NCBI GenBank assembly: GCA_947627805.1
Contig: CANQXB010000003.1
Location: 1 to 41,398, forward strand
Direction: 5' to 3'
DNA: 41,398 bases
Source: an uncultured Bacilli bacterium
GTDB taxonomy: Bacteria > Bacillota_I > Bacilli_A > RF39 > UBA660
The notes under the pieces were generated by a model. That model was given only the letters and a program-made list of their open reading frames with translations, did no database searches and had not been told where the DNA came from. How positions within the stretch are numbered: position 1 is the stretch's first letter; each line of letters starts with the position of its first letter. Below, one piece after another: positions 3,924 through 25,588 of this stretch. Position numbers and translations under genes: made by a program.

Positions 3924-5477
3924 ATGGATAATATAGCCGTTATCATCTTATTTCTATTTCTTGGAATTTTTATTGGAGCCTTATTAGTTTTTTTAGTTAA
4001 TCATTTCAAAGGGGTAAGTGCCGAAAGAAATGCTAATAAATTACTAGAAGATGCTAAAAAAGAGGCTGATAAACATAAGAGAGATTCTCTTTTAGAATTA
4101 AAAGAAGAATCATATAAATTAAAACAACAAACTAATGAAGAAATTAAAGAAAGAAAAAAGGAACTTAAAGAAAGTGAAGACCGCCTTATCAGTAGAGAAA
4201 ACAACTTAGATAAAAGAGAAGAAATGTTACAAAAGAAAGATATGGCTTTAGAAGAAAAAGAAAATAATTTGTTAGTTAGAGGACAAAGTTTACAAGAAAA
4301 AGAAGATAAGATGGACAAAATCCTAAAAGAAGAAGTACAAGAACTAGAAAAGATTTCTGGTTTAAGTAAGGAAAAAGCCCATGATTTAATTATGGCTAGA
4401 GTTGAATCAGATATGGCTTTAGAAATCTCTGAGTATATTAGAGATGAAGAAGAAAAAGCAAAAGTTACTGCTAATGACAAAGCAAAACAACTTATTGTTA
4501 ATAGCATGGAACGTTATGCTGATGATGTAGTAGGAGTACAAACTGTTTCTACTATTGATTTACCAAATGATGAAATGAAAGGAAGACTAATTGGAAGAGA
4601 AGGAAGAAATATAAGAACCTTTGAATCTGTAACTGGTGTTGATTTAATAATTGATGATACTCCAGAAGCGATTGTTATTTCTTCATTTGACCCTTTAAGA
4701 AGAGAGATTGCGAAACAAACAATTGAAACTTTAATTAAAGATGGTCGAATTCATCCAAGTAGAATTGAAGAAGTCTATGATAAGACTTGCAAAGATATTA
4801 ATAACAAGATTACGGAACTTGGTAATAAAGCAATTACGGATTTAGGTATTGCTAAAATGGATGTGGAACTAATTAATTTAGTTGGTAAACTTAATTTTAG
4901 AACTAGTTATGGTCAAAATGCTTTACAACATTCTATTGAAGTTGCTAACCTTTGTGGTTTAATGGCTTCCGAACTTGGAGAAAATATTACTCTTGCTAAA
5001 AGAGCTGGTTTACTTCATGATATAGGTAAAGCTATTGATTTTGAAGTTGAAGGAAGCCATGTGGAAATTGGTGAACAAATTGCTAAGAAATATCATGAAA
5101 ATGAAGTGGTAATTGATGCCATTACTTCCCATCATGGTGATAAAGACCCTAAATCAATTATTGCAGTTTTAGTTAGTGTTGCAGATACCTTATCTGCCGC
5201 TCGTCCTGGAGCACGAAATGATTCAGTGGAAAATTACATTAAACGTTTAGAGCAATTAGAGGAAATTGGTAACTCATTTGAAGGTGTTGAAAAAGCCTAT
5301 GCAATGCAAGCCGGAAGAGAAATCAGAGTTATGGTTAAGCCTGGAGAAATTGATGATACAAACAGTTATCGAATAGCGCGCGAAATGAAAGATAAAATTG
5401 AAGCGGAAATGCAATATCCAGGAACTATTAAAGTTACTGTAATAAGAGAAACAAGAGCACAAGAAGAGGCTAAATAA
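3924..5477 (+). CDS. rny: Ribonuclease Y
   Basis: N-terminal TM helix, coiled coil, KH motif DEMKGRLIGREGRNIR, HD motif GLLHDIGK, C-terminal YPGTIKVTVIRETRA. Confidence 0.98.
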   Translation: MDNIAVIILFLFLGIFIGALLVFLVNHFKGVSAERNANKLLEDAKKEADKHKRDSLLELKEESYKLKQQTNEEIKERKKELKESEDRLISRENNLDKREEMLQKKDMALEEKENNLLVRGQSLQEKEDKMDKILKEEVQELEKISGLSKEKAHDLIMARVESDMALEISEYIRDEEEKAKVTANDKAKQLIVNSMERYADDVVGVQTVSTIDLPNDEMKGRLIGREGRNIRTFESVTGVDLIIDDTPEAIVISSFDPLRREIAKQTIETLIKDGRIHPSRIEEVYDKTCKDINNKITELGNKAITDLGIAKMDVELINLVGKLNFRTSYGQNALQHSIEVANLCGLMASELGENITLAKRAGLLHDIGKAIDFEVEGSHVEIGEQIAKKYHENEVVIDAITSHHGDKDPKSIIAVLVSVADTLSAARPGARNDSVENYIKRLEQLEEIGNSFEGVEKAYAMQAGREIRVMVKPGEIDDTNSYRIAREMKDKIEAEMQYPGTIKVTVIRETRAQEEAK

Positions 5478-5516
5478 AGCTTCTTTTTTTATAATAAAAA
5501 AACCCTTAAAGGGTTT
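5464..5516. terminator. Convergent terminators of rny (+) and rnj (-)
   Basis: AAGAGGC/GCTTCTT stem plus T-run; AAACCC-ttaaa-GGGTTT preceded by an A-run. Confidence 0.65.
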
Positions 5517-7191
5517 AATCTTCTTTTTTGTTTACTTCCATAATAACAGGAAGGATTATGGGTCTTCTTCCAGTTAGTTCATTAATATATGGTAATAGTT
5601 CTAAAATAATTTGATTTTTTAAATCGGTATAATTATATAAAGATGTCTTTAAGAAATTATTAACAATTTCACTTATTTTATGTTCAATTTTAGTCATTAA
5701 TTCTTGATTTTCATTTACTAAAACGAATCCTCTGGCGGTAACATTAGGCTTAATTAAAAGTTTTCTTGTCAAAGTATTAATATTTAAGATAGTTATTAAA
5801 ATACCATCTTGACTCATTAATTTCCGGTCTTTAATAACCACACTTCCGACATCACCAACTCTAGAACCATCGACATAAACATCACCAGATGGAACTGTGC
5901 CACCTCTTGTAACAACTCCATTATTTAAAAGTAAAACATCACCATTACTACAAATGAAAGTATTTTCTTCTGGAATATCACACATTTTAGCAATATTAGC
6001 ATGTTGTTTTAACATTCTAAATTCGCCATGCATAGGCATAAAATATTTAGGTTTAATAATCCTTAGCATCCATTTTAATTCTTCTAATTTAGCATGTCCA
6101 GAAGTATGAATATCACTGAATTCTGAATTAGTAAATACTTTAACACCTTTTAAATATATTTTATTAATTATACGATTGATGCTTTCGGCATTACCAGGAA
6201 TAGGACTAGATGAGAAAATAACTAAATCATCAGGTAGGAGGGAAATTTGTTTATGAGTTCCATTAGCGATTCTTGATAAGGCCGCGAGTGGTTCACCTTG
6301 ACTTCCCGTACATAAAATACAAATTTCATTCCGTTTTAAACTTTTGGCCCCATTATTATCGATAAATATTGATTTATCTGAAATTAAATGGTTGTTTAAA
6401 GCTAGTTCAATAGAAGTTTCCATACTTCTTCCGAAAACAATTATTTTTCGATTATATTTTTTACAAGTTTCAACTATATGCTTAACTCGATAGATGTTGG
6501 AAGCAAAGGTTGCAATAATAACTCTTCCGACATGACGACCAATAATATCATTTAAAGTTTCATCAACAACCGATTCACTATTAGAAAAACCAGTGGAAAG
6601 AGCATTAGTGGAATCACTAAGTAAAAGAGTTACACCTTTTTTACCAAGTTCAGCCATTTTATGAATATCGGCCATTGGACCAATTGGAGTTAAGTCAAAT
6701 TTAAAATCGCCAGTTTCAAAGATAACTCCATTCGGAGTATGAACAACAATGGCAAAACTATCAGGAATAGAGTGAGTTGTATTAACAAACTCTATTTCAA
6801 AATGTTTAAATTTAACTACTAAATCTTTATTAATTATTTCTAAATTAGAATAATTAATACCTCTTTCATCTAATTTTTTAACAATTAAATCATTAGCAAT
6901 TTTGGGAGCATAAATAACCGGTATTTTAACTTGATTTAGTAAAAATGGAATGCCTCCAATATGGTCTTCATGACCGTGAGTTATAAATAAAGCCTTAATT
7001 TTATTTTCATTTTGTTTTAAGTAAGTTATGTCTTGAATAACATAATCAACTCCCAGTAAGCCTACTTCTGGAAACATAACCCCGGCATCAATAATGATTA
7101 ATTCATCATCATGGGTTATAACATACATGTTTTTTCCGACTTCACCAAGACCGCCTAAACTAACGAGCGAAGTCGCAATATTTTCTTTCAT
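5515..7191 (-). CDS. rnj: Ribonuclease J
   Basis: LGGLGEVGKN, THGHEDHIG, HSIPD, GDFK, GSQGEP, HTSGH, PMHGE beta-CASP metallo-beta-lactamase motifs. Confidence 0.97.
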   Translation of the reverse strand: MKENIATSLVSLGGLGEVGKNMYVITHDDELIIIDAGVMFPEVGLLGVDYVIQDITYLKQNENKIKALFITHGHEDHIGGIPFLLNQVKIPVIYAPKIANDLIVKKLDERGINYSNLEIINKDLVVKFKHFEIEFVNTTHSIPDSFAIVVHTPNGVIFETGDFKFDLTPIGPMADIHKMAELGKKGVTLLLSDSTNALSTGFSNSESVVDETLNDIIGRHVGRVIIATFASNIYRVKHIVETCKKYNRKIIVFGRSMETSIELALNNHLISDKSIFIDNNGAKSLKRNEICILCTGSQGEPLAALSRIANGTHKQISLLPDDLVIFSSSPIPGNAESINRIINKIYLKGVKVFTNSEFSDIHTSGHAKLEELKWMLRIIKPKYFMPMHGEFRMLKQHANIAKMCDIPEENTFICSNGDVLLLNNGVVTRGGTVPSGDVYVDGSRVGDVGSVVIKDRKLMSQDGILITILNINTLTRKLLIKPNVTARGFVLVNENQELMTKIEHKISEIVNNFLKTSLYNYTDLKNQIILELLPYINELTGRRPIILPVIMEVNKKED

Positions 7192-13720: not shown

Positions 13721-13773
13721 ATGACAAATAAACCAATGAGGTATATAATATACTTATAAAGGAAAATAATCAA
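13721..13773. promoter_or_regulatory. Overlapping divergent promoters in the IS right end
   Basis: - strand TTGATT(13768-73)-17bp-TATTAT(13745-50) facing the transposase; + strand ATGACA(13721-26)-17bp-TATAAT(13744-49) facing outward. Confidence 0.6.
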
Positions 13774-13880
13774 TAATCCTCGCCGGATGGGCCTTACTTT
13801 CTTTTACGAAAAAGAAAGATAAGCAAAGAAACCGGGGAATGATTATTTAAGTGTTTTAATGACTTATTGCTCATCTTTAA
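13756..13880 (+). ncRNA. Candidate IS-encoded multi-stem, pseudoknotted RNA
   Basis: Stems 13764-72/13840-48, TCC..CCGG/CCGG.GGA, CTTTCTTTT/AAAAGAAAG, and a crossing pairing GATGGGC(13786-92)/GCTCATC(13869-75). Confidence 0.55.
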
Positions 13881-13911
13881 AAATTTGGGAACTTCTAATT
13901 TTATTTAATCA

Positions 13912-13922
13912 AAGCTAAAAAC
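13912..13922 (+). repeat. Target-site duplication, right copy (11 bp)
   Basis: AAGCTAAAAAC followed by TAG, the apparent original stop codon of the YfhO-family gene. Confidence 0.9.
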
Positions 13923-13925
13923 TAG

Positions 13926-21741: not shown

Positions 21742-21756
21742 TAAATTGTGGTGTTT

Positions 21757-22887
21757 ATGATAGATAGTAAATTTGGAAATGTAATTAGTAGTTTAAGGAA
21801 AGAAATGGGGTTGACTCAAAAAGATTTAGCGGACAAATTAGGAATAACTGATAAAGCAATATCCAGATGGGAAACAGGTAAAAGTTATCCAACTTTAGAA
21901 ATGACATATCAAATTAGTAAATTTTTTAATGTTCCTTTTAACGATTTAATGACTGCAAGAGTTAGCGACGATGATGAAAATGATGTAGTAGCCAGTATTA
22001 TTAAAGAATTTAATAAAATGAATAAAAAGAAAACTAGAATATTAAAGATAGCTTTAATAATATCTTTAGTTGTGGCTTTAATAGTAATTGGTGTTTTAAT
22101 ATTTAGTAGTACTTATAATAAATTTAAAGTTTATAATGTTAATATTGAAAATGAAGATTTAAATAGTATTAATGGAACTTATATTGAAACTAATATAAAA
22201 GATACTTTAAATTTAGGGAGTATTTTCTTAAAAAATTATACTTTAAAAGAAAATGATACCATATCTGCTGATATTTATTATGTGGAAAATGATAAAGAGT
22301 ATATTTTACAATCTTTTAATACTTTAAATAATCTTTATTTTAATAGTTATTCTAGTTATATTAAAATCAATAATTTAAGTGATTATTTTGATAAGTTATA
22401 TTTAAGAATAAAAATAATTAATTCTAATAATGAAGTAAAAAAATATAAAGCCAAATTTATTTTTACGGAAGATTTTTCTAATAACAAACTTTATAAAAAT
22501 GAAGAAACCTATATCGATAATGAATATAAACTAATTGATTTAACAGAAGAAGAAATTGTTGATATTTTGATTAAAAATGATTTTGAAAAAATTACTTCAG
22601 TTATGTATACTAAAACAATTAATAAATATAAAGTAGCTTATTTTGTCGACTCTAATAATCTTAAAATTACATATACTGATAATAATTTAAAATATGATTA
22701 TACTTATAGTTTAGAAAACGATATTTTAAAAGTTATTATTAAAGATGAAAATAGTACAGAGATAGAAAATTATCAATATAATAATGCCAATGGTAAAATT
22801 GTTGAATGTATTGCTGGTAAATGTAATAACTATAAAGATATAATGATTTTAATAGATAAATATTTCTTAAATTTATTGGAAAAATAA
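21757..22887 (+). CDS. XRE-family HTH protein with one TM helix and a large extracytoplasmic domain
   Basis: LRKEMGLTQKDLADKLGITDKAISRWETGKSYP, TM IALIISLVVALIVIGVLIF, about 255-aa Asn/Tyr-rich C-terminus. Start ATG 21757 or GTG 21748. Confidence 0.85.
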   Translation: MIDSKFGNVISSLRKEMGLTQKDLADKLGITDKAISRWETGKSYPTLEMTYQISKFFNVPFNDLMTARVSDDDENDVVASIIKEFNKMNKKKTRILKIALIISLVVALIVIGVLIFSSTYNKFKVYNVNIENEDLNSINGTYIETNIKDTLNLGSIFLKNYTLKENDTISADIYYVENDKEYILQSFNTLNNLYFNSYSSYIKINNLSDYFDKLYLRIKIINSNNEVKKYKAKFIFTEDFSNNKLYKNEETYIDNEYKLIDLTEEEIVDILIKNDFEKITSVMYTKTINKYKVAYFVDSNNLKITYTDNNLKYDYTYSLENDILKVIIKDENSTEIENYQYNNANGKIVECIAGKCNNYKDIMILIDKYFLNLLEK

Positions 22888-22929
22888 AAATTCTCGTTTT
22901 GATAGATATTCCTTTCTCGCAAATATAGG

Positions 22930-22958
22930 TTGTCAAAATTCGCCAAAAATTTTAAAAT
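22930..22958 (+). promoter_or_regulatory. sigmaA-like promoter of the secreted protein gene
   Basis: TTGTCA-17bp-TAAAAT; RBS AAGGAG/AAGGGA downstream. Confidence 0.65.
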
Positions 22959-22984
22959 GAAAGTGGAAAGGAGATAAAAGGGAT

Positions 22985-23827
22985 TTGAAGAACATAAGGT
23001 TTATATTTTTTGCTTTAGTTAGTCTACTTGTTATTTTACCATTATATACACATGCGGAAAATATTACTAACCAAAATGGTGTAGTTATGACAGAAGAAGA
23101 ATACAATAACTTTTTAAAAATTTATACCGAACCATATATAATGACTATGACCCAAGAAAAATATGAAAAAGCTAAAGAATATGATTATTCTAATGTCAAA
23201 ACTGAAACCATATATGTTGAAACTAAATATAATCCGCATTTAGGAATATCATCTGATAAAATTATTAGTAAAGAAGAATACGACAATATTAAACCAGGAT
23301 TAAAACCCAATCTTAGTGATAATGGGGCATATGAAGAAACAACAGCTAAGACATTTTCATTAAGTTTAGTTGGTAGTACTACTTGGAACACAATTATAGC
23401 TACCGCAACTTGGAAAAGCATTCCTTCCACAAGGTCTTTCGATGTCATCGGCTTTAGAGGTTATGATTTTAGATTTAGTGAAGGTTCTCAAAGTGGTACC
23501 CAAGTATACAAAGAAAATGGCACATATAAATATATTAATTATGGATATAATGGTACTAATATTAAAAAATTCGACAATGGTTATGGTATTTCAATGAATA
23601 TTGTTAATAATACAATTTCTTATTTGCAAACAACTACGGAATGTGATGTTACTCCAACAAGTGCCCATCCAACAATATATGCATCATATCAACATGCTGT
23701 AAAAGATATAAGTTTAAGTCAATCACAAAATTATAGTCTTGGACCAGGTCTAGGCAATGTATTTGTTTATCCAAGTAATATAGTTCAATATCTTGATGGA
23801 ATGCAAGGCTTATACTTACAATATTAG
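22985..23827 (+). CDS. Secreted hypothetical protein
   Basis: TTG start; Sec signal peptide ending THA-E; beta-rich Thr/Gly/Tyr C-terminal half; no anchor seen. Confidence 0.85.
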   Translation: MKNIRFIFFALVSLLVILPLYTHAENITNQNGVVMTEEEYNNFLKIYTEPYIMTMTQEKYEKAKEYDYSNVKTETIYVETKYNPHLGISSDKIISKEEYDNIKPGLKPNLSDNGAYEETTAKTFSLSLVGSTTWNTIIATATWKSIPSTRSFDVIGFRGYDFRFSEGSQSGTQVYKENGTYKYINYGYNGTNIKKFDNGYGISMNIVNNTISYLQTTTECDVTPTSAHPTIYASYQHAVKDISLSQSQNYSLGPGLGNVFVYPSNIVQYLDGMQGLYLQY

Positions 23828-23900
23828 TTTCATAATAGGTTAGACTGCGGAAAGTAAAAAATTAAAAATTATTTCTCAGGTCGTTTTTATTAAATTTCTG

Positions 23901-24058
23901 GCGATGTTATTGGTTTTTGCAATATCGCTTAAATAAAAATTAGCAAAAGCCAAAAAATACATAGGAAACATAGACATAGCAAGAAATCTGCTATTCGACA
24001 TTTACTATTTGTATGTGACACGGGCGTGAATATAAATAATATTCGTGTCCGTTTTTTT
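23901..24058 (+). ncRNA. Candidate structured RNA: H-type pseudoknot, long irregular hairpin, terminator
   Basis: S1 23901-08/23921-28; S2 23910-20/23943-53; hairpin 23957-68/24001-14 enclosing 23976-81/23989-94. G-U pairs are consistent with the + strand. Confidence 0.55.
24020..24058 (+). terminator. Strong intrinsic terminator upstream of spoIVA
   Basis: 14-bp stem ACGGGCGTGAATAT/ATATTCGTGTCCGT (3 G-U pairs) plus T-run. Confidence 0.85.
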
Positions 24059-24086
24059 GCATAAAGTTATTTTTTTCACATAGCAT
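24059..24086 (+). promoter_or_regulatory. sigmaE-type promoter of spoIVA
   Basis: gcATA at 24059-63 and CATAGCAT at 24079-86 fit the ATA-N16-18-cATAcaNT consensus; spoIVA is sigmaE-dependent in Bacillus. Confidence 0.65.
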
Positions 24087-24109
24087 TAAGTAGATAAAGG
24101 AGAGAAGTT

Positions 24110-25588
24110 ATGGAAAAAGAAAATATAATATCTTCGATTGCCAAAAGAGGAAATGGGGAAATATATTTAGGAGTAGTTGGAGCTGTAAGAACTGGTAAAT
24201 CAACTTTTATTAAAAGATTTATTGAAAACTTAGTGGTTCCTAATATTACGGATGATTTTGATAAAAAGAAATGTTTAGATGAAATTCCTCAAAGTGCTGA
24301 AGGTAAAACAATAATGACTACTGAACCTAAATTTGTACCTTCTAATGGGGCCAATATTAAAGTTGATAATTTTGAAACCAGTATTAAACTAGTTGATTGT
24401 GTTGGTTATGTTATTCCGGAAGCCAATGGTTATGAAGATGAAGATGGTAATCCAAGAATGGTTAAAACCCCTTGGTTTCCTGATGCCATTCCTTTTGTTG
24501 AGGCTGCCGAAGTTGGAACCGAAAAAGTTATAAAAGACCATTCGACAATTGGAATAGTTGTAACAACTGATGGTTCTTTTGGAGAAATCAAAAGAGAAAA
24601 CTATATCGAGGCTGAAGAAAAAATAGTAGGAGAATTAAAAGAAATTGGTAAACCTTTTATTGTGGTTTTAAATTCCTCTCATCCTACAAACACCGAAACA
24701 GTTGAACTTTCGCGTTCTTTAAGTGATTCTTATGATGTTCCTGTTATGCCTATTAATGTGGAAGCAATGAACGAAAAAGAAATAATGAGTATTTTAAAAG
24801 AAGCCTTATATGAATTCCCAGTTTTAGATATTTTAGTTAATATGCCTGAATGGGTTCATGTTTTACCAAACAATAATGAAATAAAGAGTCATTATTTAGA
24901 CAAGATTAAAGAAAGTGTTATCAGTGTTTCTAAAGTTAAAGATATTGATTATATAACGAGCCATTTTGAAGATAGTGAATATATCTCTAAAGCCTATATA
25001 AGTGAACTTGATACTGCTAGTGGAACGGTAACGATAAACTTAGAAAGTCCTAATGAATTATATAATGCCACTTTAAAAAATTTAATGGGCGAAAGTGCCA
25101 TGACAAAAGCGGGACTTTTAAAAATCTTTGCTACTTATAAAGAAAATGCAGAAGAAACTAATCTTTTAAAAGGAGCCATTAGACAAGCTAAAACAACGGG
25201 TTATGGAATTGTTTATCCAACTTTAAAAGATATGAAATTAGAAACTCCAGAAATTGTTAAACAAGGAAGTCGTTATGGCGTAAAATTAAAAGCAGTGGCT
25301 TCAAGTATTCATTTACTTAAAGTTGATGTTGAAAGTACTTTTGAACCAATTATCGGTAGTGAAGTCCAAAGTAAAGAACTAATTGATTATCTAATGAAAG
25401 ATTATGAAACTGATCCAAGTAATATTTGGAAAAGTGAAATCTTTGGTCGTAGTTTAGAGGCCATAGTGGGTGAAGGTATTCAAGCTAAACTAAATATGAT
25501 GCCTGAAAATACCCGTTTTAAACTTTCCAATACTGTTACGAAGATAGTTAATAAGGGTTCAAATAACTTAATTGCGATTGTTTTATAA
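24110..25588 (+). CDS. spoIVA: Stage IV sporulation protein A (spore coat morphogenetic ATPase)
   Basis: IYLGVVGAVRTGKSTFIKRF, MTTEPKFVP, DCVGY, RMVKTPW, IVVTTDGS; 492 aa; followed by hup as in Bacillus. Confidence 0.97.
   Translation: MEKENIISSIAKRGNGEIYLGVVGAVRTGKSTFIKRFIENLVVPNITDDFDKKKCLDEIPQSAEGKTIMTTEPKFVPSNGANIKVDNFETSIKLVDCVGYVIPEANGYEDEDGNPRMVKTPWFPDAIPFVEAAEVGTEKVIKDHSTIGIVVTTDGSFGEIKRENYIEAEEKIVGELKEIGKPFIVVLNSSHPTNTETVELSRSLSDSYDVPVMPINVEAMNEKEIMSILKEALYEFPVLDILVNMPEWVHVLPNNNEIKSHYLDKIKESVISVSKVKDIDYITSHFEDSEYISKAYISELDTASGTVTINLESPNELYNATLKNLMGESAMTKAGLLKIFATYKENAEETNLLKGAIRQAKTTGYGIVYPTLKDMKLETPEIVKQGSRYGVKLKAVASSIHLLKVDVESTFEPIIGSEVQSKELIDYLMKDYETDPSNIWKSEIFGRSLEAIVGEGIQAKLNMMPENTRFKLSNTVTKIVNKGSNNLIAIVL

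Follow-up and report, generated by a model that had tools for sequence, protein, structure and literature searches.

End-to-end pairing of an mRNA has been named for RNAIII, icaR and hbs, and 3'-UTRs of this kind are described as usually unconserved between species (PMC7821165). The 3'-UTR of S. aureus icaR is reported to pair with its own Shine-Dalgarno (SD) region over about 40 nt, blocking initiation and creating an RNase III substrate (PMC3868564), and this pairing is reportedly not conserved even in S. epidermidis (PMC7821165). Full-length aapA and hok mRNAs are silenced by a far-downstream anti-SD sequence that pairs with the 5' end (PMC6733600, PMC8594479), and for aapA it is 3' trimming that removes the lock and activates the message (PMC6733600). 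B. subtilis hbs carries a 14-bp pairing between its 5'- and 3'-UTRs that modulates RNase Y cleavage (PMC5737220). OppZ and CarZ are autoregulatory 3'-UTR-derived sRNAs that exert negative feedback on their parent transcript (PMC7398697), and RydC, an sRNA with a pseudoknot of its own, base-pairs at a translation start (PMC4152358). Viral xrRNAs are folded RNAs reported to halt exoribonucleases, bacterial RNase J1 included (PMC5760640).

The locus described here resembles icaR in that a 3'-UTR segment is complementary to the gene's own initiation region, and in both cases the pairing could act in cis or in trans. Unlike icaR, which relies on a UCCCC anti-SD motif, the present pairing often leaves the SD core looped out and keeps the start codon as its best-kept target; it also coevolves across a genus and is abutted by a pseudoknot. 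With aapA and hok it shares a long-distance 5'-3' interaction hiding the ribosome-binding site (RBS), predicted here from folding and coevolution. Those systems have an antisense antitoxin, whereas here we found no conserved antisense sigma-A promoter (no minus-strand site was common to more than 7 of 30 loci), and only here does a knot lie between the lock and the 3' end. As in hbs, the two UTRs of a monocistronic Bacilli mRNA would pair over a long distance; in hbs, unlike here, the pairing lies in the leader and controls RNase Y cleavage, not the start codon. OppZ, CarZ and RydC act in trans and have no sequence match with the element. OppZ and CarZ reportedly depend on RNase E and Hfq. The xrRNAs block 5'-to-3' decay through a ring-like fold; a nuclease block is a candidate role for the present knot. 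The size does not fit a type I toxin mRNA, as these are described as 150-400 nt long and encoding toxins of 20-60 aa (PMC8594479), against 280 aa and about 1.1 kb here.

The window, the whole 41,398-nt stretch of DNA that we analyzed, belongs, as contig C3, to a genome of 1.16 Mb and 62% completeness. Its element, lying between a secreted-protein gene and spoIVA (Table 1), is a real RNA element of one genus, composed of an anti-start segment, an H-type knot, a variable hairpin, an RGAC motif and a terminator. It is undescribed: in the literature on RF39, spoIVA intergenic regions and structured RNAs we found no description of it, or of same-mRNA pairing combined with a pseudoknot.

Table 1. 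Positions of the element and of the features around it in the window.
Feature	Position	Strand	Remarks
hthTM gene	21748..22887	+	XRE-type HTH, predicted transmembrane and extracellular domains; Pfam HTH_3 at residues 15-67
Operator-like repeats (TTCTCR half-sites)	22891..22919	+	5' of the secreted-gene -35; conserved across the genus by sequence comparison
Secreted-gene promoter, sigma-A type	22930..22958	+	TTGTCA-17-TAAAAT, 10/12 consensus matches
Target of the anti-start segment	22965..23008	+	Predicted mRNA 5' end, Shine-Dalgarno (GGAAAGGAG), spacer, UUG start at 22985, first codons
Secreted-protein gene	22985..23827	+	280 aa, signal-peptide-like N-terminus
Anti-start segment	23859..23899	+	Complementary to the secreted gene's own 5' end, RBS and start codon
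P1 and the loop holding the P2 5' strand (23910-23920)	23900..23929	+	
Loop L3 (23930-23942) and P2 3' strand (23943-23953)	23930..23953	+	
Variable hairpin region P3	23957..24014	+	Internal loops; unconserved in sequence or shape
GAC motif ahead of the terminator	24016..24019	+	TGAC in the window, RGAC in the majority of relatives
Intrinsic terminator, predicted 3' end of the secreted-gene mRNA	24020..24058	+	14-pair stem 24020-24052, then U tract
spoIVA promoter, sigma-E-like, beyond the element	24059..24086	+	GCATAAA ... CATAGCAT
spoIVA	24110-25588		

The secreted gene has a conserved sigma-A promoter that scores 9.1 on average over 30 loci, against 6.9 for coding background, with a predicted +1 near 22963-22965. 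Since no terminator was found between its stop codon and the knot, the element is predicted to be the 3' UTR of this gene. The one RNA run found, X1, contains only divergent relatives and gives no cover of 23844-24111. The terminator itself was detected in 25 of 30 loci by a terminator finder, and RGAC precedes it in 21 of those 25, where about 10% would be expected by chance. The original prediction had left three options, namely a new sRNA, a 3'-UTR element of the secreted-protein mRNA and an aptamer-plus-terminator attenuator of spoIVA, and had proposed asking which gene the element follows. It follows the secreted gene, behind which it stays in loci where spoIVA is detached by an intervening gene or long spacer, replaced or absent (L106, L119, L104, L113 and L079); in L058, L067 and L068, the stretch immediately before spoIVA showed no such element. 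The 3'-UTR option therefore fits best and the attenuator reading fails; spoIVA moreover has a conserved promoter of its own downstream of the terminator, which we take to be sigma-E-like from its consensus and whose -10 box reads CATAGCAT or CATATCAT in all 20 loci compared. This promoter is highly conserved, and its -35 starts directly after the terminator U tract. In L106 itself (G014, L106:4706-5846), spoIVA stops at roughly codon 130, with a further ORF behind it. Homologues of the secreted gene outside the genus, five of them also adjoining spoIVA, are without the element.

The pseudoknot that had been predicted from the window's letters could be located in full. Its 8-bp first stem is present with one additional G-U pair, as P1 (GGCGATGTT, 23900-23908, pairing with AATATCGCT, 23921-23929), and the 11-nt loop pairs across the A-rich linker L3 in an H-type layout, as P2 (TTGGTTTTTGC, 23910-23920, with GCAAAAGCCAA, 23943-23953; 11 pairs, one of them U-G). 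The predicted long hairpin with an internal loop (P3) and the 14-bp terminator follow; neither the sequence nor the shape of P3 is kept between species. L1 is 1 nt long, and on steric grounds all 11 P2 pairs are probably incompatible with a complete P1. The plus-strand fold is better than chance (z -2.99, 0 of 200 shuffles), and the minus-strand fold is no better than shuffles (z -0.88). A pseudoknot finder gave the knot a score of 44, reached by none of 500 dinucleotide shuffles; among 4,648 tiles from contigs C1-C6, two others score 45, so that the single sequence is unusual and not unique, and it is conservation that decides. An ORF of 10 codons inside the knot was dismissed by eye as not conserved, and kinship with an IS30 hairpin cassette at 13721-13925 was dismissed, also by eye, for want of resemblance.

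Conservation was assessed in 39 loci of close relatives, comprising 38 loci from genomes in or close to the genus, the window's own included, and one metagenome contig. A knot occurs at the homologous position behind the secreted gene in 34 of them, being the finder's best knot in 31 and placed by hand in three (L006, L053 and L059); five (L018, L052, L060, L061 and L062) have no clear knot. Both P1 and P2 covary, as the original prediction would require of crossing stems. In an unfitted MAFFT alignment of 29 loci, 15 of 18 knot pairs show two-sided changes, with 65 covariation cells against 33 in shuffles (none of 500 as high), and slid registers give lower covariation scores than the true one. 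Only 72% of cells pair in this alignment, partly because registers slip in it. Without alignment, in 25 dereplicated loci, P2 strands bind their own partner at -8.4 kcal/mol and those of other loci at -4.0, and P1 strands at -10.7 and -3.9, against -2.8 and -2.6 for a control; the knot segments had been picked for pairing, which favours own partners in this comparison. Sister-pair contrasts likewise favour the own partner (P2 10/11, P1 7/8). Given the shuffles, the constant position and the covariation of both stems, the pseudoknot is real. Its P2 core has the genus consensus UUCUUG/CAAGAA, and L3 ranges from 6 to 36 nt across loci. Several relatives (L006, L005, L013, L014, L015 and L020) share a short UAGGC(A) word that turns up in the anti-start segment, L3 and the terminator loop, and in L006 it forms the loop of a hairpin inserted in L3.

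No known RNA family accounts for the element. It had been said to match no recognisable riboswitch or housekeeping RNA, and Rfam 15 at gathering scores indeed gave no match, ribozymes included, either for the window or for the loci of 12 relatives; a permissive search gave only three matches, at the chance level of E 1-6. A displaced housekeeping RNA can be discarded, as tmRNA, RNase P and SRP RNA score over their cut-offs elsewhere in all five genomes searched, and a 6S-like match, under its cut-off, lies elsewhere in two of the five. Separately, we noted a second, short tmRNA gene of 240 nt (L275, G000:C1:75120-75359, minus strand; 49.8 bits against an Rfam cut-off of 47), among neighbouring genes that look unlike host housekeeping genes. 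It contains a single perfect pseudoknot and a tag-like frame whose last residues are FAMAA; the ordinary 353-nt tmRNA of the same genome lies on C68, and ARAGORN found neither. As for distribution, our two covariance models of the element, R1 and R2, are weak: R1 detects a single copy per genome in 18 of 42 genus genomes, and none in 149 other family genomes drawn. Because R1 also misses a known carrier (G181), the element is beyond the genus not found rather than absent. Pattern scans of viral contigs gave chance matches only (in one scan, 80 of 120 stretches were scored). The supplementary files searched of PMC8040213 gave no match to spoIVA terms, and that catalogue could hold the motif.

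Just 5' of the knot, about 40 nt of the element are complementary to the start of its own gene, about 900 nt upstream, and the minimum-free-energy fold of the predicted 1,096-nt transcript pairs these two stretches with each other (Table 1). The 3' end of this anti-start segment (UUUC) abuts P1. It was overlooked in the original prediction although it lies within the stretch singled out there, and it is probably the working part of the element.

The segment has changed together with the start that it faces. Duplex energies average -14.5 kcal/mol with the own start and -11.7 with those of other species (permutation p 2e-4, n=21), and five other segment-target combinations, the spoIVA start included, gave no own-partner signal. 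Fourteen sister pairs were tried, four of them from poorly resolved parts of the tree; three were uninformative and the own start was favoured in 9 of the remaining 11 (Wilcoxon p 0.003), while control contrasts of the start with the downstream linker and of a mid-gene stretch with the segment were both null. Limited to the spacer and codons, the contrast weakens (8/11, sign p 0.11, Wilcoxon 0.027). In a ranking of 898 start-like sites from this genome, the own start takes 2nd place. Set against 250 background sites, it reaches the top 5% in 24 of 30 knot loci (the others being L065, L079, L101, L105, L106 and L119) and in 3 of the 5 genus loci without a clear knot. Among distant homologues, only L047 passes this threshold, 1 of 31 loci scored; 36 rows were scored and four had no start found, and with L121 and the repeated loci (L023/L123 and L035/L128) removed about 31-33 distinct loci are left.

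In all 29 loci for which a UUG start was located, both of its U's are base-paired. Duplexes folded species by species take in the GGAAA at the predicted 5' end as well as the spacer, start codon and first codons, with the SD core GGAG often in an internal loop. The mismatches are of a sort tolerated by RNA: in a DNA-scored alignment of 23 loci, whose rows are non-independent, U-G exceeds A-C within one mutation class (73/355 vs 39/533), and G-U exceeds C-A (130/226 vs 20/58). Complementarity reaches z >=2 on the transcribed side in 18 of 23 loci and on the promoter side in none, ending at the predicted +1. When whole transcripts were folded without constraint, for the first 16 eligible loci, the start and segment paired at a mean probability of at least 0.6 in 12, and the other four were without this duplex. 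These four and the six knot loci with weak segments indicate that a knot may be present where the anti-start segment is weak. Three other loci (L096, L098 and L114) have a strong segment and a remodelled or degenerate knot, with a longer helix after the segment in L096 and L098. Dinucleotide shuffles of the spacer separate only 20 of 35 loci at z <= -2, because purine-rich starts pair readily with U-rich tails. Duplex energies favour the plus over the minus strand in 35 of 35 loci, a comparison confounded by base composition on which we do not rely.

We propose, with a probability of roughly 0.6, that the element works from the 3' UTR to lock its own mRNA's ribosome-binding site and start codon, by which the finished message would not be translated. 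At the level of sequence, four parts of this proposal are established: the complementarity itself, the coevolution of the segment with the start region, the covarying H-type knot and the terminator. A single transcript would run from the sigma-A promoter to the terminator, and the first ~40 bases of its tail would fold onto the mRNA 5' end, covering the RBS and start codon. Ribosomes could then load only until the tail is made, which would limit the protein obtained per transcript, and the paired message might be stored or cut by RNase III. In the window transcript, the ribosome footprint is predicted to cost 18.0 kcal/mol to open with the tail and 4.9 without it.

The part played by the knot is harder to assign, and we suggest that it probably shields or organises the lock. 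It lies between the lock and the 3' end, and in aapA it is trimming that removes the lock, so the simplest role for the knot would be to stall trimming and keep the lock in place. More speculatively, the knot may stack on the 5'-3' duplex, and it may stall 3'-to-5' exonucleases such as PNPase just before the anti-start segment; 3' trimming would then not free the lock, unlike in hok and aapA. All five genomes tested carry genes for PNPase and RNase Y and two for RNase J, and four of the five have RNase III. Within the window, RNase Y and RNase J genes lie convergently at 3924-5477 (+) and 5515-7191 (-). It is rather unlikely that the 3' pseudoknot goes further and acts as a control unit, either a nuclease roadblock or a sensor of a ligand or protein, deciding whether the adjacent 40-nt segment locks the start. 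If it did, the element would be a 3'-end switch reversing the logic of hok and aapA.

The complementarity results all fit pairing in trans as well as in cis, and the best-surviving rival, which we consider unlikely, is that the tail is released by RNase Y or separately transcribed and represses new transcripts of its parent gene in negative feedback, as a trans-acting sRNA with a 5' seed and a knot core, following OppZ and CarZ in its logic and RydC in its shape. The compact covarying knot and terminator resemble a stable RNA, the genome encodes RNase Y, no more than one target genome-wide ranks above the own start, and the authors of the icaR study also left cis and trans action unsettled (PMC3868564). 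Separate transcription is nevertheless disfavoured, and with it the original option of a new, independent sRNA, by the lack of a conserved internal sigma-A promoter in the element (7.4, against 6.9 for background and 9.1 for the true promoter). Sigma-54 was not found in five genomes, which also removes a sigma-54 promoter reading of the upstream motif, that motif being the anti-start segment itself. The segment, too, begins 0-40 nt past the stop codon in most loci, and RNase J1 is present, to which a single-stranded 5' seed would be exposed.

It is less probable again that the duplex and knot mainly protect the mRNA, the paired 5' end against RNase J and RNase Y and the knot against 3' exonucleases, giving a long-lived message whose translation is little affected. 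Pairing from the predicted first nucleotides onward and the often unpaired SD core would suit such a role, for which the effect of 5'/3' pairing on RNase Y cleavage in hbs is a precedent (PMC5737220). The best-kept pairs, however, fall on the start codon and spacer, and the footprint is predicted to be about 13 kcal/mol harder to open.

A riboswitch acting from the 3' end, in which the knot would bind a ligand or protein and toggle the anti-start segment, appears improbable. The near-fixed distance between segment and knot (22-32 nt from UUUC to the P1 3' strand in 20 of 27 loci) and the sequence conservation of the P2 core and RGAC would suit such a switch, but the 29-row knot alignment has no invariant column. 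Nor did we detect coevolving alternative pairings or partners for RGAC, P3 or the terminator, with none of ten segment pairs significant at 5-7 informative pairs each; alternative pairing of knot and terminator was favoured in 4 of 7 contrasts (p 0.11), with self weaker than cross. That the element is a decaying, functionless inverted duplication of DNA, as its confinement to one genus among those searched might suggest, or the spoIVA attenuator, as its place upstream of spoIVA in most loci might, is a reading of negligible probability, largely refuted by the wobble excess within one mutation class, the end of complementarity at the predicted +1, the tracking of later start-region changes by the segment and the linkage to the secreted gene.

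What the proposed 3'-UTR lock would control is a protein with no Pfam or NCBIfam family match. Its structure model is an Ig-like beta-sandwich (pLDDT 82) whose best match is a pilin backbone domain (VIA Z 10.1, rmsd 2.7, 124 aligned), and the protein is predicted to resemble adhesin and pilin domains at middling Z. A likeness to pore-forming toxins was also tried, and Foldseek TM-scores near 0.2 show nothing. The secreted gene has a match in 47 of 301 genomes. The hthTM gene adjoins it in nearly all loci long enough to tell, and the operator-like repeats are conserved genus-wide, with a different repeat in distant paralogous loci; hthTM is likely the regulator of the secreted gene, as far as this arrangement indicates. 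Complex prediction for the hthTM outer domain with the secreted protein scored 0.00. The module of the two genes (21748-23827) occurs across the family in several paralogous loci, and it is possibly an unnamed one-component signalling system. A brake at the 3' end would plausibly suit an induced, exported protein.

The reach of these findings is limited to one genus of uncultured gut bacteria and to a protein without an assigned function. Control through pairing between an mRNA's own two ends has been demonstrated for few bacterial messages. The pairing described here is a long one; it has coevolved with the start site in about 30 species, and a covarying pseudoknot adjoins it. The knot is a candidate for a cellular nuclease-blocking knot, and the natural compensatory variants of the genus may offer a way to ask whether completed Bacilli transcripts shut off their own translation.
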